Positions 3,001-63,958 of a stretch of 64,000 nt of DNA are shown piece after piece. The DNA is from a virus (taxonomy: Duplodnaviria; Heunggongvirae; Uroviricota; Caudoviricetes). Made by a program: the position numbers and the translations under genes. The notes under the pieces are model-generated. The model saw only the letters and a program-made list of their open reading frames with translations, did not search any database and was not told where the DNA came from. Each line of letters starts with the position of its first letter. Position 1 is the first letter of the stretch. The DNA lies in the IMG/VR virus record IMGVR_UViG_3300020577_007233, positions 189,593 through 253,592 of that record; one strand, written 5' to 3'.

Positions 3001-6000
3001 AGCTCCCTTGATTGCATCTGCTTCTTGAATGTCTGCGGCATTCCAACCGCCGTATTGTGGATAGAATGATGGAGCGTAAAAGTCGTTGTAATCTTCAAAT
3101 GGAGTTGTTACATACGTTCCGTTTGAATATCTCTGGTTCGTCCTAACCAAACTGTTTGCAAACTGAGCGCCCGCCGTTGCGTGAGCGGCGTATGTAACAG
3201 GATCTGCCCAATAAAGAGCGCCGTAATAAGTGTTTGCAGCAAAAGGAGTTCCGTAGTAACCAACCCTAACATCAGTTCTGCCTAGTGCGGCTAATTGAGC
3301 CTTTGTTCTATTGTATAGGCTTCTAAACTGCTCTAGATTTGCGTCCGCCTGTGCTTCTGAAACTCCAAAAGACCAAACAGCAGTAGTTGTAACATTGCAG
3401 TAATCACCCTCAACGTCCCAAACAAACAGAGTACAATTCTGTGAAAGGCATTGTGCTATATGAGCAGCTATGTAGCTATCAGTAAATTGCGCCCACCCCT
3501 CTCCTGTGTAAGCAGTATATGCCCTATCAATATTGTTGACAGCCTTCATTTCCGTAAACGTAGGCTTACCAGTCCAGTTATTTATGCTCTCTGTAATGTA
3601 TAGAGATCTTTCTTTCGAGTATTTGTGAGCCAAAGCCATAGACGAATACGCATGGAACCAATTCGTGTTTATTACCCATCCGTTGTTGAATTCGTCGGAG
3701 TTGAAATCTGCGCCAGAGTAGTAGTTACTATCATACTCTTGGTCAGTGTATGTATAGGTTCCAATCCAGTCGGCGGTTCCAATGTCGGTAGCTCCGCCAG
3801 GAAGCGATGCTGAAGCTGTGTAAGTAAAGCAGTACGCATGCTCTCTTCCGTTATAGGAGTTGAAATCAGGAGGACACACCAAAGAGGGATCAGTGTAAGA
3901 AATTTCAAAACACGGAACTCTTGAGTATGAATTTGGAGAGTTGTTAGAAGTGTCAGAGTTGTAGTTTACAACAACTGTTCCGAGTTGATATGGAACCGAA
4001 AAAACCAAGCCTGGAATGGTTGTTGCTGGGCTTCCATAGTAAAACGTATTCAAATAGTACAAATCATCGTTGAAAGCTTTTTCAATGATATTTGCAACGC
4101 TTGTTGACTCGCTCCCTCCAACACTTGTTGCCGAAGAGAAATTAACGCCCGTAACTGAGTGACGAAGGCCACCGGCAGAATAAGAAAAACATCCATTCGT
4201 TATTGTCTGCCAGTCAGACAAACTCTTGGTCGGAACAGAGGGAGGACCGCCAGATGCAGTCATAAAATGTCTTTGTCTTGCCCCTCTGTAGCTAGGACGA
4301 TAAGCCGTCCAAAGAACGCATCCGTCAGCAATCCTTTTGACCCAAGAAACTGTTTTTCTCATGTAATTGCCAGAAACAACCTTACCATTCCAGGCGGACG
4401 AAGGATGAAAAGCTGATTCAATGAAAACATACAAAGGCTTATTACCAGCAACATATCTTACTGCTTGCAAAATGTTCTCTTTGAAATACGCATCATCATA
4501 AATGTCGTTTTCGCCGTAGAACGGATAAACTTCACAAGTAACGAAGTCTGCGTTATCAGAAAACTTCTTAGTTATGTAACTGCTTCCAGATTTTCTTAGG
4601 TTTATTCTTCTGTACTTGTTCTGCCAAGTATCGTAGTCAGTCAACTCAGTAGAGTTGTTGCCCCTTGTGTAATGATACATAACAGGATCATAGTAAGACT
4701 TAAACGAAGGTGTTAGGTAGAATCCAACTTTAACATCTGTTATCCCTCTTGCTGCAAGAAGTTCTTTTGTTCGATTGTACGCCAGAATATAAGACTCTAG
4801 CATGTTATCAATAATAGTGTCGCTGTACTGTGTATTGTCCATGAAAGAGATGTACAACTCTAAGTCGTAGCAGTAATATTTTGACTGACTATCGCCCAGA
4901 GATGGATCAAGATATGTTGAAATCAGCGAGTTAATCGCTGCGTCATTTACAGTCAATGTTCCTGCGGAAAGTATGGGAACAAGAACGGCTGGATCGTATG
5001 AGGTAACTGTAAAAGGACTAAAGCCTCCGCCAACATTCATGAACTCAAGACCGTAGGTATTTCTGAATGTCGTTACATTTGGCTGTCCTGACATTGCCGA
5101 CCAATAGAAAAACTTGAAGTCCTTAATGTCTGCGGTCAAGAGAGACTGTTCGCTGAAAACGGTCCACCAGCTTTGATTCTCTGCATACTCTTCCCACTCT
5201 CTTTGAGAACTAGAATTAGTGTAAACCCATTGCTTATTAGCAGGAGCAGAAGCATTGTTTACTGTAATGTCTCCAATAAACTGAGAGACAGCCAAATCAG
5301 TACCAGCAACGCTTGAGTTCCAGTCGTTTTTGCTTGATATAGTAAAAGCGCTTCCTTGGTAATTTCTGTGAAGATACGGAGGTTGAGGCGTTGCTGCTCC
5401 GTTTGTTGTCATAGAAAACAAGAAGCTTTTCTGAGTTGCGTTCCATGTAACGGTAACAGTTCCAAGAGGAAGCGGATACACTCCATCAAACGTGCCAGCC
5501 AAACCTGCGGATATCTTCGACTGTATTGCGCTCTGAAGAGTTGATGCAACGGCAGTCATGCTAAGAGCAGCAGAAGTGTTGATGCCGGTTATCTTGTACC
5601 TAACGCCAGCTATGGATAGACTGAAAGAACCGCTAGAAATAGTTCTCCAAGAAGCCAAATCAGCAGCCTCGTTAGCGCCGGATGGTCTCCATCTAAAATT
5701 GCCGTATTTGTAACTAGACCCAAGCCCGCCCTTAAGAACGACGCCATCAGAATATGTCTTGAACAAAGAAATGGCTTCAGTCATGTGATTTGAAGATATT
5801 GGAACACCAATATAGTATGAAGAAGCATCGTAAGTTGAGGCAAACGAGGCATAAAGAGGCTTTCCTCCTGCAACTCTTGATCTCATTTCCTGCAACGTTC
5901 TTCTTGCGAAAAGTTTCCATTCAGAAACTGCTGTTGAGGAAGTTCCTGAAACTCCATTTACTTTGGGACAAATGAAGTCAAAACTGGCACTAAAAGGAGT

Positions 6001-9720: not shown

Positions 9721-11076
9721 TTACAGCATATCTTCGCTGTCTTCGATGAAATCTTCTAGAGATGGAGAAGGAGCTTCTTGCCCAAAACCAAGGGGTTTTT
9801 TCTTACTTTGAGTTTCCATATACGATGAATAATCTTTGTCTTTCACTTCTTTAATTGCTTCTGTAAAGTGAGACTTTTTAAGAAGGAGTTTTCCTTCTCT
9901 GTTAGAGTCTTCTTTTACAGCAAACAAAGCAGACGTTGTACAAAGATCTCGAATATGAGCGCCAGTTAGTCCCTTAAGGGACGTAGACAATTTCTTCAGA
10001 TCCACGCTTTCGTCAATAACAAATCTGTTTGTGAATCTGAGAATCATCTTCTCAATTTCTTTTTCTGCTGGCTTGTTTACTTTGATGATTCTATCAAACC
10101 TACCCGGACGATTCTTGACTGCGACTTCGAGATCTTTCAAGCAGTTTGTCGTTCCAAGGGTTATGATATCGCCAAAACTCTCGATACCATCAAGTTGATT
10201 CATAAGTTCCATAACAAAGGATGCGTTTCCGCTTGAGCGGTCAAGAGCAATCCAATCAATGTCTTCAATTATCAGAAGACAAGGCGCTAGGTCTTTTGCC
10301 ATTGAACAAACCTGCTTGATGCCTGTTATTCTGGTAAAATCAGAAGGAAGAGCGTACAAAACTGAACAGTCAAGGTCTTTTGCCAAGCACTTGCAAAGAT
10401 TCGTTTTGCCGACTCCTGGCTCTCCGTGAAGAATCACGCCCCTCTTGATGGAAAGGCCGTATGCTCTAAGTTTATCCCTGAGACTAAAGCTATCATTTAT
10501 GTTTGCTTTTACAACATCAATAACAGCTTTTGGCAGAATGACATCTTCCCAAGTAACATTGTCAAGCTCTAAAAACCTACAGTCGCAATCAATCTTCTTC
10601 CCTTTGTAAAGGTTATTCTCTGAAGCATACTTAAGAAGGTCTTGAAAAAGATTACCCTCTTTCTCTGTTGTTTGTATGCTGTAGTAAAACCCTCCTCTAG
10701 GGCCTTGGGTTATGGTGATGACCATTTTATTTTGGTCATTCACATAATAAAGAGTTGCAGACTTGTACCCCTTGATATATTTCTTGGGTTCAACTTCAAT
10801 ATCCATGAGGGTAGGAGGAACTTCGTTTAGATAACCATAGTCTGTGGCTTTTTGAAGCTTCCAGCCTCGGTCATTGAAGAAACGCTCCCAAACATATTGG
10901 AGCTTTCTGTGGGTATAGTGATCTGCCGCCTCAGAATCGCTTAGAGTTCTTTCAGCTTTGCTGAAAAACTCATCTAGGTGAAATTCTCTGAGCGAATCTG
11001 AATCAGCGGACATCAACGCTTGCGCGTAGTCGTGCAAGGTTGCGTCTTTGAGCTTTATTTTTTGGAGATCTGCCAT
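9721..11076 (-). CDS. Classical AAA+ ATPase with N-terminal domain
   Basis: Walker A GEPGVGKTN and Walker B LLIIEDID. A second region of homology (TNCLKDLEVAVKNRPGRFDR) is typical of FtsH/Cdc48-type AAA proteins. Confidence 0.8.
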   Translation of the reverse strand: MADLQKIKLKDATLHDYAQALMSADSDSLREFHLDEFFSKAERTLSDSEAADHYTHRKLQYVWERFFNDRGWKLQKATDYGYLNEVPPTLMDIEVEPKKYIKGYKSATLYYVNDQNKMVITITQGPRGGFYYSIQTTEKEGNLFQDLLKYASENNLYKGKKIDCDCRFLELDNVTWEDVILPKAVIDVVKANINDSFSLRDKLRAYGLSIKRGVILHGEPGVGKTNLCKCLAKDLDCSVLYALPSDFTRITGIKQVCSMAKDLAPCLLIIEDIDWIALDRSSGNASFVMELMNQLDGIESFGDIITLGTTNCLKDLEVAVKNRPGRFDRIIKVNKPAEKEIEKMILRFTNRFVIDESVDLKKLSTSLKGLTGAHIRDLCTTSALFAVKEDSNREGKLLLKKSHFTEAIKEVKDKDYSSYMETQSKKKPLGFGQEAPSPSLEDFIEDSEDML

Positions 11077-11123: not shown

Positions 11124-12275
11124 TTAGTTGTTGTTCTTCTCTTCTTTAGTTTTGTCTGCGTAGAATTGAAAGAACGGACTAACAAATGTTTCAAGCTCTT
11201 TTTCGGAATCTGGGTGCTGTCTGCGAATAAAGTCAATCACAGAACAAACCCTATCATCCAGAGGAATCTTTGATGCACCAGCGCCTCGACGACCGCCTCC
11301 GTATTTCTTGCCAAAGATTTTCTGTATGAACTGGTGAACATTTATACTAAGAACGCCGGTCCTGAAAGAGGAAATTAGGTACTTGGGTCTATCAATACCC
11401 TCATCAACAATTCCCATAACCAGAGCGCTGTCGATAGACTCAATCTGAAGCATTTCTTCACAAAGCTTAGCAAGCAAGGCTCTTTGTTGAGCGTTTACAA
11501 AGCCAACATTTGATATGGTCAGATTGTTTCCGCAAACAAAGAAGTTGCTATACGCTCTTCTTCTAAGTTCAAGCAGCGCAAGAGGCTTGGGGTAGTCGTA
11601 AATCTTGCGAAGCAACTCAACATCCATCATTGATCTCAGCAAATCAATCGCTGCTGCATCGTTAGGAGTTGTTCCTTCTGATTTCAAATCTGCGGTATCG
11701 GTTGAAATGCCAAGATAAAGAGCCGTGGCAAGCCCTTTATCAATCCCAATTCCTAAAGTATTGAGCATTTCGAACAGTATTGTCGAACATGAGCCATATT
11801 GCTTGTTTATGTAGTTTGGGCAATCAAGATATGGATTTGAGGTATGATGGTCAATAACAACGTCGGGTTTTCTGTCCTTGTCAAGGAAAGGAAAAGCTCC
11901 TGTGTTGTTTTCTTTTCCAAAGCAACAGCTAGTATCAACAACAACAATCAAGCTTTTCTCAAGATTGCTTTTTATCTGCTGCAATGATTCTTCTTCGTTA
12001 TCTTCATCTATCTCAAGCTTCACTGCTGTTATGTTGAGAACATTCATCATAACACTGTTTTGAGTGTATGGAATTTCTCCGCCGTAATAGATTGTTGACG
12101 TTTTCCCAACAGATTCAACAACCGATTGTACAGCAAGGGCAGACGCCAGGCAATCTGGATCTGGCTGATCGTGACAAATGATAGCAACATTGTCTTTGCC
12201 TTTTTCTTTCAAGGCAGAAATCAATTTTTCAGACAGCTTACTATCAATGACTTGAATACCGTCTTGTTCGCTCAT
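11124..12275 (-). CDS. DHH/DHHA1 phosphoesterase (NrnA-like nanoRNase/pAp phosphatase family)
   Basis: Motifs HDQPDPDCLAS, VVVDTS and VIDHHTS, plus a C-terminal GGGRRGAGAS that fits the DHHA1 GGGH motif. Confidence 0.8.
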   Translation of the reverse strand: MSEQDGIQVIDSKLSEKLISALKEKGKDNVAIICHDQPDPDCLASALAVQSVVESVGKTSTIYYGGEIPYTQNSVMMNVLNITAVKLEIDEDNEEESLQQIKSNLEKSLIVVVDTSCCFGKENNTGAFPFLDKDRKPDVVIDHHTSNPYLDCPNYINKQYGSCSTILFEMLNTLGIGIDKGLATALYLGISTDTADLKSEGTTPNDAAAIDLLRSMMDVELLRKIYDYPKPLALLELRRRAYSNFFVCGNNLTISNVGFVNAQQRALLAKLCEEMLQIESIDSALVMGIVDEGIDRPKYLISSFRTGVLSINVHQFIQKIFGKKYGGGRRGAGASKIPLDDRVCSVIDFIRRQHPDSEKELETFVSPFFQFYADKTKEEKNNN

Positions 12276-14781: not shown

Positions 14782-15636
14782 TCACGACTGAAGTATAGCC
14801 TCCAAATCGCTCATGTACGAGGGATTGAGTGCCACTTTTTTCTGCAAACGCTCAAGAATCTTTGCATGCATTTGGCTTATTCTGGATTCAGAATAACCAG
14901 TCTTTTCTGCAATCTCTTTCATGGTCATATTTTCGTAATAGTGCATGTGAACGATTTTGCGCTCAAGAGGAATGAAATTCCTTCCCATCAACTTCTTGAA
15001 CATCTCTTCTTTGACAACGCTACCGAGAGGCTGCTCTTCGCTAGACTCATAGCTCTCAATCTGAAGTTCTTCACCGTCTTCTTTACCTGAAGAATTGCTG
15101 TAGATGCTCACACAAGAAACAGGATTAGCCTTTGCCTCTATCTCCGTAAACTCTTCCAGCGTCATGCCAAGATGGTTAGCCATCTCTTCGGAAGTTGGAA
15201 TTCTTCCAAGATCGCACTCTAAGGCATGGCGAGCCTTTTGCAGCTTGTTGTGTCTTTGTCTAACAAGACGAGGAACCCAGTCAACCTGTCGAATGTTGTC
15301 AAGTATAGAACCCTTGATTCTATGAATTGCAAAGGTTTCAAACTTATTCTCAAGGGTTGGATCGAAACGATCAATAGCATGAAACAGACCGTCAGTTCCC
15401 CATGCAACCAGGTCGTCGATATCAACCTCTCTAATCTTCTTGTGCATCCTGTCAGCCACCTTGCTAACAAGTGGGTAGTACAGTTCGAGTAGTGAGTTTC
15501 TGGCTTTCTCGTAGTCTTTTTGTGACTTCTTGTAATCTTCAGTTTCTTTCACAGAATCAGAGGCGTTTTTGTCAAACTTGTTTCTAATCTCGACGAAGTT
15601 ATTCCACTTCGTCTTGAGTGCTTCGTTACTTATCAT
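14782..15636 (-). CDS. Sigma-70 family sigma factor (FliA/sigma-28-like)
   Basis: Region 2 (DLVAWGTDGLFHAIDRFDP...FETFAIHRIKGSI) and region 4 helix-turn-helix (TMKEIAEKTGYSESRISQMHAKILERL). Confidence 0.8.
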   Translation of the reverse strand: MISNEALKTKWNNFVEIRNKFDKNASDSVKETEDYKKSQKDYEKARNSLLELYYPLVSKVADRMHKKIREVDIDDLVAWGTDGLFHAIDRFDPTLENKFETFAIHRIKGSILDNIRQVDWVPRLVRQRHNKLQKARHALECDLGRIPTSEEMANHLGMTLEEFTEIEAKANPVSCVSIYSNSSGKEDGEELQIESYESSEEQPLGSVVKEEMFKKLMGRNFIPLERKIVHMHYYENMTMKEIAEKTGYSESRISQMHAKILERLQKKVALNPSYMSDLEAILQS

Positions 15637-48343: not shown

Positions 48344-48907
48344 TTGCAATTACAGAGTATGAGAAAAGCATTCACACTGATCGAGCTTCTTGTTGTTATA
48401 GCTATCATTGCTTTGTTGCTTTCTATACTCATACCATCCCTTGCTAAAGCAAGAGACACAGCTAAGAGTATTGTATGCACTACAGGCCTAAAGCAAATCG
48501 CAACAGGCATTGCTATGTATGTTAACACTCATAGAGACTATCCAGATGCATATGGCAACCAATCTGTTGTTTCAGGTATCAACCTTCCTGATAAACTTGA
48601 ACCATACCTAGATGCTCCATTGCCAGTACCAGGCCAAAAGCTTAGTCCTTGGGTATGCCCCTTTGATAAAGAAATGTATCCTATTACGGGCGGTAGCTAT
48701 ATGTATGCCCCATACTACTATAGAATATGGTTCAAGCCCTCAATCACAACAATCTTTGAAACAGTCCCGCTGCTTCCAATGATAAGAGACTTCTATCCAA
48801 GAAGAAATAACCTAGTTCATATTGCTAGAGTTGATACATCTACTGATGAAGTTGACCAAACAACCTACGCTCCCGGCGCAAGCTGGCTTAATGCTAATCG
48901 TAGATAA
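48344..48907 (+). CDS. Prepilin-type N-terminal cleavage/methylation domain protein (type IV pilin/pseudopilin-like)
   Basis: MRKAFTLIELLVVIAIIALLLSILIPSLAKARDTAKSIVCTTGLKQIATG is a classic class-III signal. It resembles the DUF1559 (H-X9-DG) pseudopilin-like proteins of Planctomycetes and Verrucomicrobia. Confidence 0.7.
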   Translation: MQLQSMRKAFTLIELLVVIAIIALLLSILIPSLAKARDTAKSIVCTTGLKQIATGIAMYVNTHRDYPDAYGNQSVVSGINLPDKLEPYLDAPLPVPGQKLSPWVCPFDKEMYPITGGSYMYAPYYYRIWFKPSITTIFETVPLLPMIRDFYPRRNNLVHIARVDTSTDEVDQTTYAPGASWLNANRR

Positions 48908-54219: not shown

Positions 54220-54395
54220 TCTTCACACTAATAGGAAAAAGGCCGTAGCTGTGTATACTTTAGGCTACCACTGGCGAATATAGATATCTTACTTTTCCTG
54301 AAGACCCCCCCTATGGGGTACGGGGTACTCCTTTTATCATTATGAGTGGGAAATAACAACTCCCATTCTTCCACTGCGCCAGGCCCCCACCCCTC

Positions 54396-54578
54396 CTAAG
54401 AAAGTCTAGCCCTTCTTAAGCTGCTCCTCAGTTCCTTAAGCTTTGCCTTGAACTTGGCATGGATGGATGGGTCATCCTTGCAGCCTGCGTATCCGCCAGC
54501 GGCAACGTCTCTGCGCCATTGCGAGTAGTCGTCCTCTGTCTTATCAATCTGCTGTTGGATGGTCATGGGCTTGTTCAT
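54396..54578 (-). CDS. Small hypothetical protein (60 aa)
   Basis: Minus ORF directly downstream of motif copy 54597. Confidence 0.45.
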   Translation of the reverse strand: MNKPMTIQQQIDKTEDDYSQWRRDVAAGGYAGCKDDPSIHAKFKAKLKELRSSLRRARLS

Positions 54579-54685
54579 ACCTACAACCTTTGCGCAGAAA
54601 GTCTAGCCTCCTTAACTTGGTACGGAACCCATACCCTTGCGGGCTAGGTTAGGTTGGCTCAACCCTTTACCCGTACCGTGCGCCG

Positions 54686-54892
54686 TTAGCCCTTCTTGGG
54701 CTTTGTTACCTTGAGGCTGATGCGTCCCTTGTTGTTGGAGGCGAAGGCGAGGACTCGGTTGAGCATATGGTTGGCCTTCTTCCAACCGGCGACTCGGACA
54801 ACATCATCGACTTCGAGGGAAACGTCGATGTTAAGACGAGTCTGCTTGCTTGAGCGGGACTTGGTTGCCTTGACTGTTTTGGTTGCTGCCAT
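54686..54892 (-). CDS. Small basic protein (68 aa), possible DNA-binding
   Basis: Downstream of motif 54911, after an AAGGA RBS. Confidence 0.45.
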   Translation of the reverse strand: MAATKTVKATKSRSSKQTRLNIDVSLEVDDVVRVAGWKKANHMLNRVLAFASNNKGRISLKVTKPKKG

Positions 54893-54916
54893 GTTCCTTG
54901 TTTCCTTTGAGGAAGT

Positions 54917-55405
54917 CTAGCCCTCAACCCAATACGCTCGGCTGCTTTCGGTGACGTAGTTATTTTCCGTCATCTGCCAAGCCTTTCCATTGTGACGAAT
55001 GGAGTTTGTAAAGTATTTCGGCTTGTTGTTTTCGTCGAGGATGGCGATGCTGTAATCGCCAGCGGTCTTGGGAGGGTCAGTAAAGACGCAACGAAGTTTT
55101 GCCTTGAAACTGACAGGCTTGTAGGCTTTCTTCTTTCTCGGCTTGTCCAGCCGAACGAGGTCGGTAAAGACTTTGCCGTAGGGAAGGGGAGGATGGCCCT
55201 CCTTGTCGGTCGGAGCCTTGACTGAGGCGACAACCGCATACTCCTTAATATGACGATTGTAGGCTTCCCATTGCTTTGCGATTTCGGTTGCTTCGGCAAT
55301 GGTTTTTGGTTCTGGACCGCTGGGGCCAAAGTTGCCCTGCCAAGTTCCATCAACTTTGTTGCCGTTCGTTTTTTCGACTTCGATGATGGAGTAGTTCATG
55401 TTCAT
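54917..55405 (-). CDS. Hypothetical protein (162 aa)
   Basis: Downstream of motif 55418. Its TAG stop is the CTAG core of motif 54911. Confidence 0.5.
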   Translation of the reverse strand: MNMNYSIIEVEKTNGNKVDGTWQGNFGPSGPEPKTIAEATEIAKQWEAYNRHIKEYAVVASVKAPTDKEGHPPLPYGKVFTDLVRLDKPRKKKAYKPVSFKAKLRCVFTDPPKTAGDYSIAILDENNKPKYFTNSIRHNGKAWQMTENNYVTESSRAYWVEG

Positions 55406-55428
55406 TACGAAGGGTCAGGAAGTCTAGC

Positions 55429-55557
55429 CTACCGCTGAGAGTTCTTGGGCTGCCGCTGCTTGTTGCGTTCTCTCCGCCGTTCGTTCCTCCGCTGTTTGCG
55501 CTCTTGTTCGGCTGCCCAGCGTTGGATGGCGTTCGCATCTCTTTCAAAGTCGCTCAT
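55429..55557 (-). CDS. Small Arg/Gln-rich protein (42 aa)
   Basis: Hand translation gives MSDFERDANAIQRWAAEQERKQRRNERRRERNKQRQPKNSQR. It lies downstream of motif 55576. The 65-aa ORF listed in the track is in another frame and crosses a motif, so it was rejected. Confidence 0.35.
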   Translation of the reverse strand: MSDFERDANAIQRWAAEQERKQRRNERRRERNKQRQPKNSQR

Positions 55558-55637
55558 GCTTATGAGTTGTTGTTAGAAAGTCTAGCCTTGTTAAATGACA
55601 AACCCCCTTACGGGGGTTGTTTGGGGTTGGGGTTGAC

Positions 55638-56006
55638 TTAGGCGACCGCTGCCGCTTTGGGCTTGGGCGGGAGGCTGATGCGCCCGCCGCGACGGATGAC
55701 GTAGGGGATGGGGCTGTCGTTGGGGACGGTGATGCCGTAGATGCTGCTGAGCATCCCAGTCGCCTGCTTGTCGCCGCCGAGGTCGCGGATGGTCTTGGCG
55801 GCGATTCGGATGGTCTGGCGAGTGCCGCTGGCGATGGTTGCGCGGCCCTTGGTCATGATCGTTCCGATGAGGCTCTTGACTTCGGCATCGGAGAGGTTGG
55901 GGTTGGCGGCGCGGACGGCGTTGATAGCGAAATCGACGCTGTGGATGCTGCTATTGAGGATGGTGAGGGTGAAGGGCTTGGCGGTCTTCTTGGTCTTGGT
56001 CGTCAT
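55638..56006 (-). CDS. Hypothetical protein (122 aa)
   Basis: RBS AAAAGGAAAC. Downstream of motif 56071. Confidence 0.5.
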   Translation of the reverse strand: MTTKTKKTAKPFTLTILNSSIHSVDFAINAVRAANPNLSDAEVKSLIGTIMTKGRATIASGTRQTIRIAAKTIRDLGGDKQATGMLSSIYGITVPNDSPIPYVIRRGGRISLPPKPKAAAVA

Positions 56007-56087
56007 TGGGCGTTTCCTTTTCTTTGTTAGGGGCGAGGCATTCGTCCCTTATGGCTCTTGGAAGTTGCGAGAAAGTCTAGCCTTGAA

Positions 56088-56381
56088 TTACCCCTGCCTC
56101 AAACTGAGTTGAGGGATAACAATGCGGCTGGCGATGGCGGCTGTTTCCTTGACGATGTGCCGAGTTCCCTTAAGTTCGGCTGTCTTGGAGTTGCCTTCGA
56201 GTTGGCGGTTCTGCTTGGCGATTCTGCGCCCGAGGGTTTGGGGCGTAACTTCGTTGACCTTGAAGAAACGGCGAGCGTTGCCTTGCCGTTCTGCTTCTTC
56301 ATCGAGGGAATCGAGGCCGCTACCCTTTTGGGCTGCGGCTCGTTGACGGTTGAGGTTGCGGAGGGCTTTTTCGTTGAACAT
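56088..56381 (-). CDS. Hypothetical protein (97 aa)
   Basis: RBS AAAGGA. Downstream of motif 56416. Confidence 0.5.
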   Translation of the reverse strand: MFNEKALRNLNRQRAAAQKGSGLDSLDEEAERQGNARRFFKVNEVTPQTLGRRIAKQNRQLEGNSKTAELKGTRHIVKETAAIASRIVIPQLSLRQG

Positions 56382-56461
56382 TGGGCTGGTCCTTTCTGCT
56401 GCCTATTTCTGGCGAGAAAGTCTAGCCTTGCCTTTCGGCAACGATGAAAGCCTTGCCTTTG

Positions 56462-56950
56462 TTAGCCCTTTGCCTTGCCGACCTTGACCACCTTGAGGAG
56501 AAAGCGAGCGCGACGGCCTGCGTGCTGTCCAGGCTTGCGGTTGAAAACGATGTCGGCCCTTGCCTTGCTCATGCCAGCATCGCGCCGCTTCTTGCGGTTG
56601 ATGACGGTTTGCTTCTTGATGGGGGTGATGCTGATGGGGTGGCCGAGGTCGAACACCGTACCGGCGGCTTCGGGCTGTCCTGCGTCAAACTGCTTGGCGG
56701 ACACAAACTGCTGAGCGTTGGGCGAGAAAACGAGGCGGTGGCCGTTGGCGATGGCTCGGATTTCGAGGCGGTCATTCTGAAAGACGACGGGATCTCCGTA
56801 GCCAGCGAGGCGCATGCCTTCGGCGTGTTGGCAATGCCGAGGGTCTTGGAGTTTGCACTCCTTCGCATCGGGCAGCGAGTAGAGGCGAGGCATCTTCTTG
56901 TTGCCCACCTTGAAATACTTGTGCTTGGGATTGGGCTTGGTCGTGGTCAC
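56462..56950 (-). CDS. Basic hypothetical protein (162 aa)
   Basis: GTG start with an AGGA RBS. Downstream of motif 57003. Confidence 0.45.
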   Translation of the reverse strand: MTTTKPNPKHKYFKVGNKKMPRLYSLPDAKECKLQDPRHCQHAEGMRLAGYGDPVVFQNDRLEIRAIANGHRLVFSPNAQQFVSAKQFDAGQPEAAGTVFDLGHPISITPIKKQTVINRKKRRDAGMSKARADIVFNRKPGQHAGRRARFLLKVVKVGKAKG

Positions 56951-57008
56951 TTCTTCTGTCCTTTCATGGAATGGGGTTGACGATGGGGCTTGTTATTTGC
57001 GCGAAAGT

Positions 57009-57431
57009 CTAGCCGATTGCCTGTGCCTTGCGTGCTTCGTATTCCTCTTTGGCCTTCACCCACTTGTCGAGGGTTTCGATTGCTGCCTCTGGCACGCCTT
57101 CGCGGAAGTTGTCTGACCAAAGGCGGCAATACGCTCCGTCGCTGTATTCGCTGAGGCCAATCCATTGAACGTGGTTGTTCTCATCGAGGAACATGCAACC
57201 ACCAAAGCGGCTGAATGTGCTTGCCTTGGGCTTGTTCCAAACTTCGCCTGCCACCTTGGGGTTGGTTGTCTGGCTCCAGAATCGCACGCCCTTGTTGGGG
57301 CTGTATTCGAGCCAGTACCGAATCTTGCAGCGAAGTCGGAACCCAAAGGGGTAATCATCGACGACGTATGCGGTTTCGGGTGAGATGTGTCCCTTGAGGA
57401 GTTTCGTGACGGTTGGGAGGGTATTGGGCAT
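57009..57431 (-). CDS. Hypothetical protein (140 aa)
   Basis: Downstream of motif 57449. Its stop TAG lies inside motif 57003. Confidence 0.5.
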   Translation of the reverse strand: MPNTLPTVTKLLKGHISPETAYVVDDYPFGFRLRCKIRYWLEYSPNKGVRFWSQTTNPKVAGEVWNKPKASTFSRFGGCMFLDENNHVQWIGLSEYSDGAYCRLWSDNFREGVPEAAIETLDKWVKAKEEYEARKAQAIG

Positions 57432-57454
57432 GGTTCTTGTTTCTTGCGCGAAAG

Positions 57455-57586
57455 TCTAACCCTGCCTTGCGCCTCTGCGATTGAGGAGTTCGGTTGTGAT
57501 GGCGAGCATGGCCTCAACGTCGCCTTCCATCTTGGCGAGTTCGTAGGCATCGCGGAGGTGATTGAACGTCATTTGGTCGAGTCGCA
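57455..57586 (-). CDS. Small protein (43 aa)
   Basis: Hand translation gives MRLDQMTFNHLRDAYELAKMEGDVEAMLAITTELLNRRGARQG. The stop TAG lies inside motif 57449. Downstream of motif 57627. Confidence 0.35.
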
Positions 57587-57844
57587 TGGGTCGAGTCCTT
57601 TCGTTGTTACATATAATAAGTTGCCAGAAAGTCTAGTCGTTGGCGGCTCGGAGAGTTCCACTCATAACGATTACCGCTAGTTAAGCTCAACAAGGCCCTC
57701 AAAGGGCCTTGTGAGCTGCCGTTGGATGATTCGCTTGTTTGGTTGGGGTTAGTTCTGTTTCATGGTTTGTTCTCCCTTGGTTTGTCGGAGTTGACTTGTC
57801 TGATGACTCTTAACAAGGGGCTGAAAGTCTAGCCCCCTTGTCTC

Positions 57845-58195
57845 TTACCATCCGAGTTCCTTCGGGCGGTTGGTATTCTCTACCCTCTTGCGTTGGGGCT
57901 GAGGGTTGCGATTCTGAGCGGCGGCAACCGCTGCGCCGAGGAATCCTTCGATATTGGCGACGCGCTGGCCGAGTTCTTCGGCATCCTTCTTCTTCTTCCG
58001 TTCGTCCATGATAGCGTTCATGGCGAGGGAGCGAAGTCCTTGCGCTTCCGCCCGTTCCAACAAAACTCGTTCGAGTTCTGTCAGTTCGTCGTAGGCGAGG
58101 AATTGTTGGGGGGCTGGCTTGTCCAGACCGCCGTATTGTTCGGCGGCAAGGATGAGCATGGGGTCCATTCGACGGAGTTGGTTGGGGTTGGGCAT
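57845..58195 (-). CDS. Hypothetical protein (116 aa)
   Basis: Downstream of motif 58214. Confidence 0.5.
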   Translation of the reverse strand: MPNPNQLRRMDPMLILAAEQYGGLDKPAPQQFLAYDELTELERVLLERAEAQGLRSLAMNAIMDERKKKKDAEELGQRVANIEGFLGAAVAAAQNRNPQPQRKRVENTNRPKELGW

Positions 58196-58232
58196 GACTC
58201 TTATTTCCTTTGGGAAAGTCTAGCCCTTCGAT

Positions 58233-58526
58233 TTAACGACCTGCTTTGGCTTGGATGCGGACGTTGTAGAAGTTGCCCTCTCGTTGGTCGCTCTGTACGT
58301 TCCCAAAATGAACGATCCAATTCCTCTCGTCAAACTCCTTGACAGTCCTTCTGATGACTCTCTCATTGACAAGGGAAGTGGCAATGGTTGTATCTACCGT
58401 GCTGCCAGTAACGTATTGGCGAGTGAGAGTCTGAATGAGGGAATCGACCACCTTGACGAACATGGCTTCGTCTTGGTCTTGCTGAATCTTGTCGAGTTTG
58501 CTTGGCGTTGGGATGTTGATGTTCAT
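58233..58526 (-). CDS. Hypothetical protein (97 aa)
   Basis: Translationally coupled to the upstream gene. Confidence 0.45.
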   Translation of the reverse strand: MNINIPTPSKLDKIQQDQDEAMFVKVVDSLIQTLTRQYVTGSTVDTTIATSLVNERVIRRTVKEFDERNWIVHFGNVQSDQREGNFYNVRIQAKAGR

Positions 58527-58714
58527 TAGATTCTCCCTGTTGCAGTAAACTCCACCTTGAGGCCGTTAGAAAGGGTCACGATGCCCTCAAGGGCTGCTGC
58601 GAACGATGAGGGATGAAGGTTGCGAGAGTTGTTGCACTTGCTGCATGGTCCTCCCTTGAGGCCGCTGTGCTTGCCGCAGTCTTTCTTAACAAGTTTGATG
58701 GGCGGTTGTTCCAT
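58526..58714 (-). CDS. Small Cys-containing protein (62 aa)
   Basis: CGKHSGLKGGPCSKCN. Downstream of motif 58733. Confidence 0.45.
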   Translation of the reverse strand: MEQPPIKLVKKDCGKHSGLKGGPCSKCNNSRNLHPSSFAAALEGIVTLSNGLKVEFTATGRI

Positions 58715-58771
58715 GCGTTCTACTTCTTGCGCGAAAGTCTAACCCTTGCGCAGTGGTGGCGCAGTGTTGCA

Positions 58772-59020
58772 TTACTGATTTGCTTCGAGTTGCGCCTTGT
58801 ACCGCTGAAAGTTGTGACGTTGTGTTGCTTGGGCTGCTCGGTACTCAACTTGACAACTGATGCAGCGAATCTCTGCGCTGCTTGTTCGTTCGAGTTTCTC
58901 AAAGGGCTGATGGCAGTCGTAACAAATGCCGACGATTCTTCTTGCGATGCAAGTATCGCAAGCAACAACGGTGGGGATTTCTTCCCCTTTGCAGAATCCG
59001 CATTTGTCGTTGCTGGGCAT
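58772..59020 (-). CDS. Cys-rich zinc-ribbon-like protein (82 aa)
   Basis: CGFC...CDTC...CYDCH...CISC. Downstream of motif 59039. Confidence 0.5.
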   Translation of the reverse strand: MPSNDKCGFCKGEEIPTVVACDTCIARRIVGICYDCHQPFEKLERTSSAEIRCISCQVEYRAAQATQRHNFQRYKAQLEANQ

Positions 59021-59044
59021 GACTCTATCTTCCGTTCTGGAAGT

Positions 59045-59356
59045 CTAGCCCTTGATGCGAATACTTCCCTTCATGCGTTCATCATCGCACCAACAACCGC
59101 AGACTCCTCCGCAACCTGGGCAACCACCCTTGATTGTGACATCGGCTTCGAGAGCGTAGGCTGCATTGCCGATGATTCGAGCGGTCTGATTCCAAATGGC
59201 TTGACTGGTGCCGTCAAGTTCCTTTGCTGACTTGTCCGAAACCATTTGGCAGGCTTTGGCAGTCGCCTTAAGCATGCGCTCGCCGTATTGCTCGATGAAA
59301 ACGAACATTGACAGAGCGAGTTCATCGTCGGAAAGTTGTTTGGGAGGGTTGGGCAT
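59045..59356 (-). CDS. Cys-rich protein (103 aa)
   Basis: GGCPGCGGVCGCWC. Its stop TAG lies inside motif 59039. Downstream of motif 59375. Confidence 0.5.
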   Translation of the reverse strand: MPNPPKQLSDDELALSMFVFIEQYGERMLKATAKACQMVSDKSAKELDGTSQAIWNQTARIIGNAAYALEADVTIKGGCPGCGGVCGCWCDDERMKGSIRIKG

Positions 59357-59390
59357 GGCTTTTACTTCCTGCGAGAAAGTCTAGCCCTTA

Positions 59391-59669
59391 TTAGTTGGGC
59401 ATCTTATGTCTTGCCGCTGCTGCGAGTTCAGGCGAGACAACGAATCCCATGCCAAGCCAGTTACGGTCGGCGAGAGAGGTGAACGCTTCCATCTTGGCCG
59501 CCTCAATTGGCCGCTTCTTCATTCGCTCAAAAGCGATCCAAATGCGCTTGATGGTTCGAGGAGTCGGTCGTTTGGGATGATGAAGCAGAGCGTAAACGTG
59601 GACGATGCTTGGCAGGTGCATCATGCGACGGATGCTCATGTTATTCGGATTGGGGCAGTCCGTTGTCAT
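59391..59669 (-). CDS. Hypothetical protein (92 aa)
   Basis: Downstream of motif 59687. Confidence 0.45.
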   Translation of the reverse strand: MTTDCPNPNNMSIRRMMHLPSIVHVYALLHHPKRPTPRTIKRIWIAFERMKKRPIEAAKMEAFTSLADRNWLGMGFVVSPELAAAARHKMPN

Positions 59670-59881
59670 TGCTTTTGTTTATTGAGCGAAAGTCTAGTCT
59701 TTGGGGCATTGGGCTGGAAGGACGTTCACTCATAATGATTACGATGTTTAAGTAGCCAGAGCGGCTTAGGGGCATTGAGTTCCCTATCCGCTGCTCCCTG
59801 CAATGCTCCCCTCGGAACGTGTCCGAGAGGCAGGTCGCCTGGCTTTTCCCATTGTAAGGCTTTGACCCGAAAGTCTAGCCC

Positions 59882-60070
59882 TTAGATTCTGTTTCCCTTG
59901 CTGTCGCAAGGTCCGAGCGTAACCCAATGAGCGTCGTAGGGTTGGGGCTTGACAAGGGGTGGCCCCTTCCAAGTTCCGTTCCTCCGTTGCTCCATCTCAT
60001 GCGCCCATGAGCCTTCGTAGCGGCTGATGGGTTCGTACTTGCCGTTCGGTTTCTTCTTTCCAAGTCCCAT
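59882..60070 (-). CDS. Small protein (62 aa; start moved to ATG at 60070)
   Basis: Starting at MGLGKKKPNGKY places the ATG 18 nt from motif 60089. The track's TTG start would be only 6 nt from the motif. Confidence 0.4.
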   Translation of the reverse strand: MGLGKKKPNGKYEPISRYEGSWAHEMEQRRNGTWKGPPLVKPQPYDAHWVTLGPCDSKGNRI

Positions 60071-60099
60071 GCTTCTTAACAAGGGTTGGAAAGTCTAGC

Positions 60100-60513
60100 C
60101 TACAGTTTGCTGACTCTTTCGCCGTCCCCAACGAGGTCGTACTCGGGAAATTCCTTGCTGAGTTTGGTAAGGCGTTCGCCGAGTTCGTTGGCTTCGAGTT
60201 CCCTTCTGTCCCAAAAGCCAGCCCCATGACCGTTGCGAGTGAGCCAAAAGTCGTGGCCGTACTGAGCGGCATCCGCTTCTTCGAGTTCCTCGGTGGTAAG
60301 TTCTTCGAGCATCATGGTTGCAAACTGAGCGCAGTCGGCAACCATATCAAAGTAAGTCGCCGGCTCGATATCATCGCCGTCGTACTGACCGTCCAAGTTC
60401 TCTGAGGTGGCTTGATCGCCTTCGTTGGTACTTGACCAAAGGGCGCAAACGATGTACGCCTTCACAAAGTTGTCAAACCAATTCGAGGGGTTGGAGTTGA
60501 AGTTCTTACTCAC
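60100..60513 (-). CDS. Acidic hypothetical protein (about 137 aa)
   Basis: Start inferred at a GTG that overlaps the upstream small gene's TGA (GTGA coupling). The 249-aa track ORF crosses motif 60708 and is treated as an artefactual extension. Confidence 0.4.
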   Translation of the reverse strand: MSKNFNSNPSNWFDNFVKAYIVCALWSSTNEGDQATSENLDGQYDGDDIEPATYFDMVADCAQFATMMLEELTTEELEEADAAQYGHDFWLTRNGHGAGFWDRRELEANELGERLTKLSKEFPEYDLVGDGERVSKL

Positions 60514-60689
60514 GCCTTCTCCCCTTCTGGCACGCCCGCCGCTTCGAGGAGTTCGGTATCGCTTGCGTCGATGTGCTTTGCGAGGGATTGGAGTTCCGAA
60601 AGTTCTCCGTAAGAGATACGTTCGGCTCGGAGTTCCTTGCGAAGATACTCCAATCTGTCTCGGATGCTTTGAGGGGTTGAGTTGGGCAT
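60510..60689 (-). CDS. Small protein (59 aa)
   Basis: Hand translation gives MPNSTPQSIRDRLEYLRKELRAERISYGELSELQSLAKHIDASDTELLEAAGVPEGEKA. The ATG is 18 nt downstream of motif 60708 with an AAAGG RBS. Confidence 0.4.
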   Translation of the reverse strand: MPNSTPQSIRDRLEYLRKELRAERISYGELSELQSLAKHIDASDTELLEAAGVPEGEKA

Positions 60690-60713
60690 GACCTTTATTT
60701 CTGGCGCGAAAGT

Positions 60714-61046
60714 CTAGCCGACGATGCTGGTGTATGCGTCTGGCTTGGTTTCGCCCTTCTTGCGCAAAAACCAACCTCTCGTTGAGATGTGGATGATTTC
60801 GTAACCCTCGGCAATCTGAGGGAAGGGGCGGTACTCGCCTTGCCACCATTCGTCATTACGAACGCATCCGCCGTTGTAACGGGTTGACCCATAGGCTGAG
60901 GGAATGGACGCTGATGACCCCATGTAACCCTTGCCGTAACCATCCCCAAAGGCGTTCTTAGGATTGGCTTTGGCAACCTTGGCGCATTTCGCTGCATCCC
61001 AAACCTCTTGCGGATGCTGAAACAATGGAAGGTTGGGGTTGACCAT
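60714..61046 (-). CDS. Gly/Tyr-rich hypothetical protein (110 aa)
   Basis: Downstream of motif 61065. Its stop TAG lies inside motif 60708. Confidence 0.45.
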   Translation of the reverse strand: MVNPNLPLFQHPQEVWDAAKCAKVAKANPKNAFGDGYGKGYMGSSASIPSAYGSTRYNGGCVRNDEWWQGEYRPFPQIAEGYEIIHISTRGWFLRKKGETKPDAYTSIVG

Positions 61047-61146
61047 GCTTAAGGATTTGCTGATGAAAGTCTAGCCGATTGCGTTGCACTCATAACGATT
61101 ATGGTCGCTTGTTATTTCCTTGCACTCATAACGATTTCGGTTAGTT

Positions 61147-61186
61147 AAAAGCCAAACGGCAAGGGATTCGTCCCTTACCGTTGGCT
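61147..61186 (-). terminator. Intrinsic terminator (hairpin plus T-run) preceding a promoter-like cassette
   Basis: On the minus strand the stem AAGCCAACGGTAAGGGA/TCCCTTGCCGTTTGGCTT is followed by TTTTAAC. Confidence 0.55.
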
Positions 61187-61223
61187 TGCCCAATGTTCGT
61201 TTGGAAAGTCTAGCCCTCGGCTT

Positions 61224-61949
61224 TCAGACCTTCATCATGCTGCGCTCGCCGATGAGGTACGCTTCGGCAATGTCCCAAATTCGCTCCCTCATTTCCATCG
61301 GACGCTCGGTAAAGTTGTCGGTAATCCGATACCGTTCGCCGCCGATGGCGATTTCGACGATGTTCTCAATACCGTAGACAACGAACCGAACCGCATCATC
61401 CCCAAGCCCCTGATTGGAGTAGTCGGAGCGAGGGGCAAGGTACGGCTCGACGTTTTCGGTCGGCTCGGTCGTTCCGTCCGCGAGTCGGAGATACTCGGGC
61501 GTTCCAACCGCCTTGAAGATGAAGCGGAGATAGGCCGCGCCGTCGTCGCCCTTGTCCTTCTTGTTGACGCTGAGGCAAGTCGGACCATCCTCGGCCATGA
61601 TAGGCCGATGCCATGATTCGCCCTTGCGGAAGCGGTCTTGAATTTCCGCCTCAAGTTCCTCGGCTGAGAGGGGGGCAAGGTTCGCCGCCGCCCGTTCCGC
61701 CTCAATCGCCTTTGCGAGTCGGTTCTCGACAACGCGCTCGTAACGGCCCGCGATGGTTCCGTTGACCTTTGTGACCTTGCCGATGGTCAAACCATCCTTC
61801 ATGGTACGGCCCGCCTTGAAGGGGTTGGGAAGGCCGTTGGTTCCGTTCGCCCTCGTATCGGGTTCGGTAACAACCACCATGCTGATGATGGTATTGGCGG
61901 TAACGCCAAGCAGAAGGGTTCGGAGTTGGTTGCGAGAGATGAGTTTCAT
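61224..61949 (-). CDS. Secreted hypothetical protein (241 aa, N-terminal signal peptide)
   Basis: Hydrophobic N-terminus. Downstream of motif 61987. Confidence 0.5.
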   Translation of the reverse strand: MKLISRNQLRTLLLGVTANTIISMVVVTEPDTRANGTNGLPNPFKAGRTMKDGLTIGKVTKVNGTIAGRYERVVENRLAKAIEAERAAANLAPLSAEELEAEIQDRFRKGESWHRPIMAEDGPTCLSVNKKDKGDDGAAYLRFIFKAVGTPEYLRLADGTTEPTENVEPYLAPRSDYSNQGLGDDAVRFVVYGIENIVEIAIGGERYRITDNFTERPMEMRERIWDIAEAYLIGERSMMKV

Positions 61950-62128
61950 TGGGCAGAGTTCCTTTCTGTCTACTGAAAGTTCCTTGAAAGTCTAGCCCCA
62001 AAGTTCATTGGTTGGGGTTGCTTTCGATGCTACTGGAAATTCCGTTGAAAGTCTAACCCTTGCGCCGAATCAGGAAGTTCACTCATAACGATTATGCTGC
62101 AATCATTATAGGTGAGATTGTTCGATGC

Positions 62129-62155
62129 AAAAACGAAAGCCGCAGTTGGCTTTCG
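62129..62155 (-). terminator. Strong intrinsic terminator immediately after motif copy 62156
   Basis: On the minus strand the stem CGAAAGCC-AACTGC-GGCTTTCG is followed by TTTTTGC. Confidence 0.65.
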
Positions 62156-62171
62156 GAAGTCTAGCCCTGTT

Positions 62172-62489
62172 TCAGCCAGCCGCAATGGTCGCTTCAAGGG
62201 GGACGTTTGGTGCGCCTGCTTCAATGGCGACGTTATCCCTCTTGGTCTGAATCTGCTCAACCTTGAGTTCGCAGAGTTCAAGATGCCCTCTCCAAACAAC
62301 CGCCTTACCTTTTTCGTGGACCTCGATGGTTGTTTTGACTGCATCCTTTTCGCTCATCTTGCAAACCTCCATGAGAAGGTTAGCAACGAAGTCGGGCGTA
62401 TGAACGTCGGAGTTCCAAAGGAGAACAACATGGGGAGGAAGATGGTCAACCTTGGTTTCGGTTGCTTGTTCAAGGGTTGCGTTGGGCAT
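62172..62489 (-). CDS. clpS: ClpS-like ATP-dependent Clp protease adaptor
   Basis: VVLLWNSDVHTPDFVANLLMEVCKMSEKDAVKTTIEVHEKGKAVVWRGHLELCELKVEQI is collinear with E. coli ClpS ([23 protein letters not shown]...[22 protein letters not shown]). Confidence 0.7.
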   Translation of the reverse strand: MPNATLEQATETKVDHLPPHVVLLWNSDVHTPDFVANLLMEVCKMSEKDAVKTTIEVHEKGKAVVWRGHLELCELKVEQIQTKRDNVAIEAGAPNVPLEATIAAG

Positions 62490-62559
62490 CTGATTCTTTT
62501 CGACATCGCCTATTTCGGCTCTGAAAGTCTAGCCGCCGTTTTTTTCCACATCGAAGTTC

Positions 62560-62950
62560 AGCGGTCTTGACTCCGCCTCGTCTTTTGGGGTCTTGCACAG
62601 TGCAAACAGTGTGAGTTCAGTGCCTCTTGTGTGCCTTTTGTGTGCAGTTCAGTGGTCCTTGCTGCGCCTGCCTCCGCCTCGGCTGCCTCGGAGCGGCTCC
62701 TCTTCTTTTGGGGTCTTTATGATCTTTCAAGATCGCCCTTGTTTTTGGGCCTTTTTGCACCTCGGAGGTGATCGTCTTTGGGGGTCTTGACGGTCAAATG
62801 ACCGCTTTGACCGCCATCTGATCCATGCTCTTTTGGGTCGTTGGACAAATCTATTTGTATCGGCTTCTGTTTGGGGGTCTTTGGTCTGGGTGCTGCTTCC
62901 CCGATCTTTCCGGGTTTGCCGGGTCTTTGACCCAGATCTGGGTCTCGTTT
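62560..62950. repeat. Non-coding iteron/palindrome region: about five copies of TTTGGGGTCTT plus two perfect palindromes (GATCTTTCAAGATC and GACCCAGATCTGGGTC); GATC-rich
   Basis: Iteron copies lie at about 62581, 62705, 62774, 62829 and 62867. The palindromes are at 62721-62734 and 62929-62944. At least six GATC sites fall within about 260 bp. No credible ORF is present. Confidence 0.6.
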
Positions 62951-63178
62951 ACCCTGCGACGGAAAAGGTCACTCATAACGATTATATGCTAGCGCAAACA
63001 TAAGGGCGGCTTGTTTAGGGCCGCCCGTTGATTCGTACCTCCCGATTCTCTTTCGGGTTCCGAATAGCAGAGTTCCGTCCGCTCGGGGTAACTAAGGCTC
63101 GCAACCATACACTGACCAGTCGCCCGGTCTATCCTGTTGCTTTTACCATTCCATGCCTTTTGTTTTCGGCGCGAAAGT

Positions 63179-63364
63179 CTAGCCGACTTTCAGAGTCAGA
63201 GGATGCTTGAATGAGGGGCGAGAAACAATCCGATTGGGCTTCTCGGCGTTCTGAACCTCAAGGGTTCCTCGGAGCCAAATGGGAACCTTTGAGTGAACGG
63301 TGGGGTTCTTGGGCCGCTGTGCGGCTTCTGCTGCTCTCTTGGCTTCTTTGCTTGCTCGGCTCAT
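63179..63364 (-). CDS. Small basic protein (61 aa)
   Basis: RBS AAAGGAAAAG. Its stop TAG lies inside motif 63173. Confidence 0.45.
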   Translation of the reverse strand: MSRASKEAKRAAEAAQRPKNPTVHSKVPIWLRGTLEVQNAEKPNRIVSRPSFKHPLTLKVG

Positions 63365-63520
63365 GGGCTTTTCCTTTTCAACAAAGGGCGAGAAAGGCGA
63401 GGACGCAGAGAACGAAACGGTCTCGGTTGCTCATGCTTATGACTTCTTACTTAGAAGTCTAGTCTCCTTAAAGCAGAGCGGAGGACCAACGGCCCTCTAC
63501 GCCCTGCTGCCCAAGTTTCA

Positions 63521-63709
63521 TTACCACTTCTTCGTGGCTGTCTGCTGAACGGTTGCCTTGTTGCCGTTGCTTCCGAACGCCTGCCTTGCTGCGTCGGCTG
63601 CGTTGTTCGCCCCAGTCACGGTCTTGGTTTGACCGCTGTGAGTGACTTGGAACGAGTTATGGGAACCTTGCTGCATTGGCTGGAACGGGGTGTTATTCGA
63701 GTTTGTCAT
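63521..63709 (-). CDS. Small protein (62 aa)
   Basis: Downstream of the double motif at 63728 and 63744. Confidence 0.45.
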   Translation of the reverse strand: MTNSNNTPFQPMQQGSHNSFQVTHSGQTKTVTGANNAADAARQAFGSNGNKATVQQTATKKW

Positions 63710-63748
63710 GCCTATTGAAATGACCCCGAAAGTCTATCCCCAAAAAGT

Positions 63749-63958
63749 CTAGCCCTGACTCTTGGTTGGCGTCAGAAGAAAAGGCTCGTTTGCTTCTTCA
63801 GGACGGTTGGGCCAAGAGCGAAGCCGCTTCATCTCAGGGTCGGCGTGCTTCAGATCCCAAACGCTCTTGGGGTCGATGGTGCCAGGGTAGGGCCAGTCGT
63901 TGGGACTGACGCCCCGCCACATTACCGCTGCCTTGCTGAAGCCTTGGCAGTAACCCAC
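63749..63958 (-). CDS. Small protein (69 aa as listed; N-terminus uncertain)
   Basis: Its stop TAG lies inside motif 63744. Confidence 0.4.
   Translation of the reverse strand: MGYCQGFSKAAVMWRGVSPNDWPYPGTIDPKSVWDLKHADPEMKRLRSWPNRPEEANEPFLLTPTKSQG

Follow-up and report, generated by a model that had tools for sequence, protein, structure and literature searches.

A conserved 17-bp element behind hairpins in the small-gene region of a large phage: a candidate transcription start signal

What starts transcription again behind the terminators of a region of small phage genes was asked for a window of 64,000 nucleotides (the whole stretch of DNA analysed) from a virus of the Caudoviricetes, IMG/VR record IMGVR_UViG_3300020577_007233, positions 189,593 to 253,592. 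The small-gene region of this window (54-64 kb) carries two repeated words, motif B, defined as TAATCGTTATGAGTG read on the coding minus strand (plus-strand form CACTCATAACGATTA), and motif A, GGCTAGACTTTC. An earlier reading of the letters of this DNA (the sequence-only reading) had proposed that motif B marks transcription-unit starts, regulator binding sites, alternative promoters or small structured RNAs. With somewhat better than even confidence, we take motif B to be a promoter at which transcription resumes behind each terminator and which heads every small-gene transcription unit. Among the proposed options, that of transcription-unit starts is favoured by comparison, since sequence, orientation and position behind terminators are kept despite a protein identity of ~50%.

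Motif B and the hairpins ahead of it

With up to two mismatches allowed, motif B was matched 7 times in the window against 0.09 expected from shuffles, which bears out the repeated element with six coding-strand (minus) copies at 57659-62984. The plus-strand form starts at 57659, 59727 (1 mismatch), 61087, 61123 (1 mismatch), 62080 and 62970. Two details of the sequence-only reading had to be corrected: the tandem copies, given as 38 nt apart, are separated by 36 nt (61087 and 61123), and the stretches described as free of open reading frames (ORFs) hold ORFs of 30-44 codons. It had also overlooked an inverted copy (54334-54348) and a degenerate inverted partner (62100-62114). Copies and hairpins are given below; L-numbers denote loci of relatives, and sRNA-1 and sRNA-2 are conserved structured RNAs treated with the rival explanations.

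63004-63026, minus strand: terminator hairpin of sRNA-1 with the conserved loop CCCTAAACAAG and GC to CG compensatory changes (-15.1 kcal/mol, z -2.95).
62970-62984, minus strand: copy 1, TAATCGTTATGAGTG, 3' of the sRNA-1 terminator and followed by a 436-nt non-coding stretch; orthologues at L087 9454, L088 9538, L089 9475 and L090 9491.
62134-62155, minus strand: intrinsic terminator (8-bp stem and TTTTT), directly 3' of a motif-A copy.
62100-62114, plus strand: degenerate inverted partner of copy 2, CAATCATTATAGGTG, 5 nt off and back to back with it.
62080-62094, minus strand: copy 2, between the terminator of a ClpS-like gene and the gene of a 241-aa protein, upstream of the latter.
61147-61186, minus strand: intrinsic terminator (long stem and T-run), 3' of the 241-aa gene (z -6.08).
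61123-61137, minus strand: copy 3, AAATCGTTATGAGTG, 3' of the terminator of the 241-aa gene.
61087-61101, minus strand: copy 4, the second of the tandem pair; copy 3 lies 36 nt upstream and GGCTAGACTTTC 10 nt downstream.
59727-59741, minus strand: copy 5, TAATCATTATGAGTG, beginning 12 nt 3' of the sRNA-2 closing stem; orthologues at L079 12497, L087 14637, L088 16396, L089 15216 and L090 15974.
57684-57717, minus strand: strong hairpin ahead of copy 6, with a weak T-tract (z -5.51).
57659-57673, minus strand: copy 6, 3' of the hairpin at 57717-57684.
54334-54348, plus strand: inverted boundary copy, TTATCATTATGAGTG, facing the end of the small-gene region at a change in G+C content; conserved inverted boundary copies at L079 14270, L087 15504, L088 18178 and L090 17992.

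The motif-behind-hairpin arrangement with some T-runs, as described earlier, was confirmed: all six sense copies are preceded by a stable hairpin (z-scores -2.95 to -6.08). A strict terminator scan demanding a hairpin plus a T-run was passed by two, 62155-62134 and 61182-61155, which meet the definition of an intrinsic (rho-independent) terminator; the remaining three are stable and have weaker T-tracts. The 70 nt upstream of B fold with a median of -22.8 kcal/mol against -15.2 kcal/mol in random windows of the same regions (p = 2e-9). The gap between hairpin and B is ~11-18 nt, read by eye on aligned copies because automation by minimum free energy was too noisy. Downstream, the 11-27 nt to the next GGCTAGACTTTC given by the sequence-only reading stood for four of the six sense copies, which are followed by motif A and a gene after 10, 20, 21 and 27 nt; it failed for 62970-62984, with 436 nt, and is not applicable to 61123-61137, where a second B comes next.

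A role of motif B as start codon was ruled out, as the ORFs starting at its own ATG are too short (median 14 codons over 56 copies from the window and relatives) and nothing coding-like is present there. A tRNA-like anticodon arm, considered because of the word CTCATAA, was rejected by inspection, the flanking bases being unpaired. The motif strings, searched in the literature, turned up in unrelated primer sequences only.

Conservation and turnover in related phages

Cultured relatives were sought by blastn of 57-64 kb against 50,697 phage records, which gave no match. An exact-match scan of IMG/VR found multiple B copies in two contigs only, of 494 kb and 370 kb; there, B is identical and motif A reads ACTAAACTT[T/C]C. 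A single-protein query in IMG/VR was fruitless, and relatives were therefore found by an alignment query and a protein database: the conserved 241-aa protein (61224-61949) has 37 homologues, all metagenomic, through which further phage contigs were recovered. A 505,915-bp contig of the same giant phage came from a further scan, for the pattern B-N-A. Altogether, 56 B copies were collected from seven phages, including contigs of 494-506 kb, with a G+C content of the locus between 38 and 53%.

In these copies, information content is limited to one contiguous 17-bp block, TAAT[C/G][G/A]TTATGAGTGnA, with twelve essentially invariant positions and flanks at background; the sole signal upstream of the block is a weak TTTAA. 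This block persists despite considerable protein divergence: compared with the 494-kb phage, the ClpS-like protein is only 50% and the 241-aa protein only 57% identical. B has the same orientation as the genes in 47 of 56 copies, and every copy of L087 lies between called genes. Loss of position in related phages, which would have spoken against the element, was not observed: in 7/7 phages, one B lies upstream of the 241-aa gene and another downstream. In relatives, copies are also found behind the ClpS-like gene, sRNA-1 and sRNA-2. The divergent pair formed by copy 2 and its partner recurs in L005 (5919-/5933+) and L081 (9876-/9890+).

Where the word is not kept, its place may be. The sister clade L083/L091 has no B; the word AAAGATA[G/A]GTG (AAAGATAGGTG) takes the post-terminator places instead, that behind the 241-aa gene among them, and lies 3-4 nt ahead of TCACTGA, the per-gene word of this clade. 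The two words have only AT[G/A][A/G]GTG in common. A promoter that co-evolves with its reader would be expected to change its sequence in this way while keeping its positions. In the L085/L086 clade, neither B nor a replacement word is present, and terminators are directly followed by motif A. In the 494-kb phage (L075), one B stands alone in a divergent intergenic region, ~120 nt ahead of a gene; between B and this gene there is neither hairpin nor motif A.

The promoter reading and its rivals

A promoter of the sigma-70 type has -35 and -10 hexamers separated by 16-18 bp, with A at -11 and T at -7. In 54-64 kb no site resembling this type was found against 4.0 +/- 2.1 in shuffles; therefore, another signal must start transcription there. 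If this signal is B, a unit would consist of B, a leader, one or more genes each headed by GGCTAGACTTTC, 18 nt and ATG, and a hairpin terminator. The next B would follow ~11-18 nt past the hairpin, terminator and promoter forming one compact cassette. A polymerase would bind B and start a few bases downstream of GTG, and inverted copies might fire antisense or convergent transcripts or serve as bookends. B would be read by a phage-adapted specificity factor, for which a FliA/WhiG-like sigma factor encoded at 14782-15636 is a candidate, or alternatively by a phage polymerase.

The candidate (minus strand) comprises regions 2, 3 and 4 and matched TIGR02479 FliA_WhiG with E = 5.5e-54 and 183 bits, just under the cut-off of 189.6, and FliA in the PDB with E = 5.5e-32. 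Its nearest cellular relatives belong to the Planctomycetota and its phage relatives are located on contigs of up to 464-502 kb; the ~500-kb phages are probably associated with Planctomycetota. Canonical sigma-28 promoters (TAAA-N14-16-CCGATA) had 0 matches in the window and GCCGATAA-like words occurred at chance level. Because canonical sites are absent, the specificity of the phage factor may have changed; that it reads B is what we infer. No polymerase family was detected in a Pfam scan of 40 window ORFs of at least 150 aa (about three-quarters of those listed), and a PHROGs scan of the first ten of these was likewise without one, 64 kb of a probably ~500-kb genome being visible. Two ORFs of 916 and 709 aa were considered as a hidden polymerase and discarded, having no PDB or Pfam relatives.

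With at most one mismatch, motif A has 28 matches where 0.39 are expected; all lie on the minus strand (54400-63754), and an ATG nearly always follows after exactly 18 nt. The distance from B to A is 12-162 nt without helical phasing, and no A is found within 200-436 nt of several B copies, namely 62984 with its orthologues and that of L075. A single bipartite promoter of B and A was thus ruled out, in agreement with the argument of the sequence-only reading that the spacing to GGCTAGACTTTC is not rigid. B is not the upstream half of A because of this variable, unphased spacing, the copies lacking A and the isolated L075 copy; it is autonomous of motif A. Some further properties of A were observed. 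Its TAG often doubles as the stop codon of the preceding gene, and a stop codon, which may be TAG, TAA or TGA according to clade, is always embedded in the clade variants CTAGACTT, CTAAACTT and TCACTGA. Many proteins behind A start with Met-Pro-Asn (window; L079, L081, L085, L087-L091). At the start of the sRNA-2 cassette of L079, L087, L088 and L089, ACTTTCC, the 3' half of A, is perfectly complementary to a GGAAAGT ~10 nt downstream, and the two would form a hairpin sequestering motif A if the stretch is transcribed.

Several observations weigh against a promoter role of B. It fits no known promoter class: it is one block, not a -35/-10 pair, and at -7, where sigma-70 requires T, its TATGAG carries G. 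Among the 56 copies, nine point the other way and face no gene that they could drive; five of these stand at the boundary, and the others are the divergent partners. The isolated L075 site faces a gene in either orientation. Motif A may itself be a promoter, B then being dispensable, a promoter of a second class or a regulator site: A stands directly behind a terminator without B at 55618 to 55587, throughout the L085 clade and in L012, it precedes tRNAs and a tRNA-like RNA, and it is found in tandem. The near-constant distance from hairpin to B could mean a joint action of both of another kind. Finally, the promoter role is deduced from sequence, and the polymerase or sigma factor reading B is a candidate.

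Classical promoter assignments were rejected in either orientation. As a sigma-70 promoter, the best hexamer of B is TATGAG with its G at -7, and a correctly spaced -35 is missing; as a sigma-28 promoter, the position weights of the 56 copies misfit TAAA-N15-GCCGATAA.

The most probable rival, considered rather unlikely, is an operator at unit-initial promoters, bound by a phage-encoded repressor, activator or roadblock, with A or another element initiating transcription. The sharp-edged 17-bp block does resemble a protein-binding site, three phages have back-to-back inverted pairs ahead of the 241-aa operon, inverted copies stand at the module boundary, and A alone behind terminators (L085, L012, window 55587) could be the real promoter. 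Against an operator speak the unphased 12-162 nt to A and the copies that have no A within 200-436 nt; moreover, single B sites are not palindromic, and an inverted partner is present at about one site per genome only, with a spacing of 5-13 nt.

It is an improbable alternative that B has little function of its own and merely forms a conserved terminus of terminator cassettes that are mobile or prone to recombination, kept uniform by gene conversion and spread by module shuffling. In favour of this, the window has the ClpS-like and 241-aa modules in exchanged order when set against L079 and L087-L090, and in L090 the ClpS-like gene is gone from between the B copies at 10826 and 10900. Terminator cassettes of T4-like phages act likewise (PMC4122927). 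Gene conversion within a genome, however, cannot yield near-identity over seven phages with 50-57% protein identity and 38-53% G+C, and B stays constant where its flanks, hairpins included, diverge freely.

Two further explanations place B in RNA. Two of the cassettes have bodies that are conserved structured RNAs, listed here.

62995-63150, minus strand: sRNA-1, conserved non-coding RNA of ~150 nt in cassette 63184-62985, behind a 3-codon mini-ORF.
59754-59844, minus strand: sRNA-2, conserved structured RNA domain in which a closing stem encloses two inner hairpins (z -3.6).

Counting over 5-6 sequences, compensatory changes affect 9/27 pairs in sRNA-1, which has an invariant CCCGA/TCGGG hairpin and a covarying terminator stem with the fixed loop CCCTAAACAAG, and 7/20 pairs in sRNA-2 (~90 nt, cassette 59880-59741; closing stem and inner hairpin, five phages). 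Rfam 15 gave no covariance-model match at gathering thresholds and a single chance-level one at E <= 1, leaving both RNAs unmatched; a tRNA search of the window found none. B lies 3' of both structures and of the terminators, outside of them, and has neither pairing nor covariation. The small structured RNAs proposed by the sequence-only reading therefore exist as two cassette bodies and do not include the motif, and covariation and folding in homologues, suggested there as a check, hold for sRNA-1 and sRNA-2 and not for B.

That B acts as RNA, i.e., as a leader element for processing, antitermination or factor loading in read-through transcripts, is little probable. B is always found on the sense strand, immediately 3' of hairpins; since some of these lack good U-tracts, read-through is plausible. 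Nevertheless, B lacks structure and covariation, its variants ignore G-U tolerance, inverted copies exist, the isolated L075 copy has no co-directional upstream gene for read-through, and the gap of ~11-18 nt is too short for an upstream promoter. Most improbable is a role of B as 3' end or seed sequence of the small RNA genes: two cassettes do carry structured RNAs immediately upstream of it, but B is beyond closing stems and terminators, most copies follow plain gene terminators without such an RNA, and unrelated upstream sequences precede an identical B.

The promoter reading can be extended to a proposal which is speculative and which we hold with low confidence only. B and A would form a private two-tier expression grammar of one 10-15 kb module in ~500-kb phages probably infecting Planctomycetota. 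B would be read by a dedicated phage transcription factor or polymerase, e.g. a re-targeted FliA-like sigma factor no longer reading sigma-28 promoters; A would be a per-gene re-initiation, processing or translation signal; and the inverted B at the edge would be a convergent stop.

Genomic setting and comparison with known systems

The window clearly belongs to a large phage, encoding ribonucleotide reductase, ThyX, dUTPase, UvrD-type and SNF2-type helicases, a Dam-type methylase and peptide deformylase. G+C content is 51-55% at 54-64 kb against 38-46% elsewhere in the window, with an A/C-rich coding strand of the module and an abrupt break at ~54300; at the inverted copy 54334-54348, G+C drops from ~53% to ~42%. 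The blocks around this inverted B are conserved (window 54230-54400, L079 14166-14400, L087 15400-15572). They contain GGCGCAGTGGAA on the early strand and GTAAGATATCTATATT immediately ahead of the next, HNH-like gene, neither being repeated elsewhere in the window. Boundary words as a repeated third promoter class were ruled out, AAGATATCTATATT and AGGRGTACCC being unrepeated in the window.

Genes of the region are small and mostly without Pfam matches, in the window and in relatives. ClpS-like adaptor genes are found in the small-gene modules at 62172-62489 in the window, at 11125 and 15158 in L081 and at 9453 and 16921 in L085, sometimes two per phage. The modules (including window 48344-48907) also encode an RNA ligase, HD-domain proteins and proteins with a prepilin-type N-methylation motif, a gene content suggestive of host take-over.

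Further non-coding features were noticed. The mini-ORF ahead of sRNA-1 (63154-63143, minus strand; M-E/D-W-stop) is shared by 4 phages and lies at the usual distance from motif A. Downstream of copy 1, the following stretch is found.

62535-62969, minus strand: ORF-free stretch with AAGACCCC(A)AAAGA repeats and GATC sites.

It is conserved with a length of 360-440 nt (also L087 9470-9838 and L089 9490-9839), and is GATC-rich with a conserved GGAGCCGCTCC palindrome. It may represent a replication origin primed by transcription, or else a long non-coding RNA. L079 has at ~5205-5350 (equal to L005 1376-1523) a tRNA-like RNA of ~150 nt with T-arm and CCA end, uncalled by ARAGORN. Its 5' acceptor strand GCCGACA lies within a mini-ORF (ATGCCGACATAG) 18 nt after motif A, and a terminator and a B copy follow. 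Genes for tRNAs occupy motif-A-bounded cassettes of their own in L085 (340-470 and 15130-15290, with apparent long insertions) and L081 (4058-4130).

The closest described concept for a cassette of hairpin plus B is, by analogy, the PeSL (promoter-early stem-loop), a composite terminator/promoter cassette of T4-like phages which mediates modular shuffling (Arbiol et al. 2010, PMC2839356; Comeau et al. 2014, PMC4122927). B cassettes resemble PeSLs in a stem-loop adjoining a conserved promoter-like word, in their repetition between small, variable genes of early type in a plastic region, and in their association with indels and module shuffling (the swapped ClpS-like and 241-aa modules; the L090 deletion). 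They differ in that B is a single 17-bp block without -35/-10 and not a sigma-70 early promoter, in that a second signal, motif A, stands ahead of every gene, and in that the phages are ~500 kb in size and probably Planctomycetota-associated, host and phage lineages being unrelated to those of the T4-like phages. In a strict sense, B is not a PeSL member.

Other systems share single features. Promoters of single-subunit RNA polymerases of the T7, T3, SP6 and Syn5 type are contiguous, nearly invariant blocks of ~15-23 bp. B is likewise contiguous and nearly invariant, has an A/T-rich start (TAAT), is conserved across diverged relatives and turns over between clades (B versus AAAGATAGGTG). However, it shares nothing with them beyond TAAT, and no such polymerase was found among the window ORFs scanned. 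The consensus of sigma-28 (FliA/WhiG) promoters is TAAA-N15-GCCGATAA. The phage encodes a sigma factor of this family, the CG.TA of B recalls CGATA and a weak TTTAA lies upstream, but CG is the variable part of B and the invariant TTATGAGTG is without a sigma-28 counterpart. In T4 and SPO1, promoters of different temporal classes (early and middle) are arranged in tandem, comparable to the two distinct conserved signals, B and then A, ahead of the first gene of a unit; here, however, A also precedes nearly every internal gene, exactly 18 nt from the ATG. Judged from sequence comparison, B cassettes most likely contain a phage-specific promoter-like signal of a type not yet described, within terminator-promoter cassettes.

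If B proves to be an ordinary promoter read by the host, its value would be mostly for annotation. The two cassette RNAs are new conserved structured RNAs, and the comparisons show that small-gene modules are being exchanged among these phages. As B is a 17-bp word conserved in the lineage, confined to one module and absent from promoter catalogues, it can be used to annotate transcription units of megaphages and to seek its reader, for which the FliA-like sigma factor of the phage is a candidate. B thereby offers a route into the transcription programmes of ~500-kb phages, a lineage of which no member is cultured.

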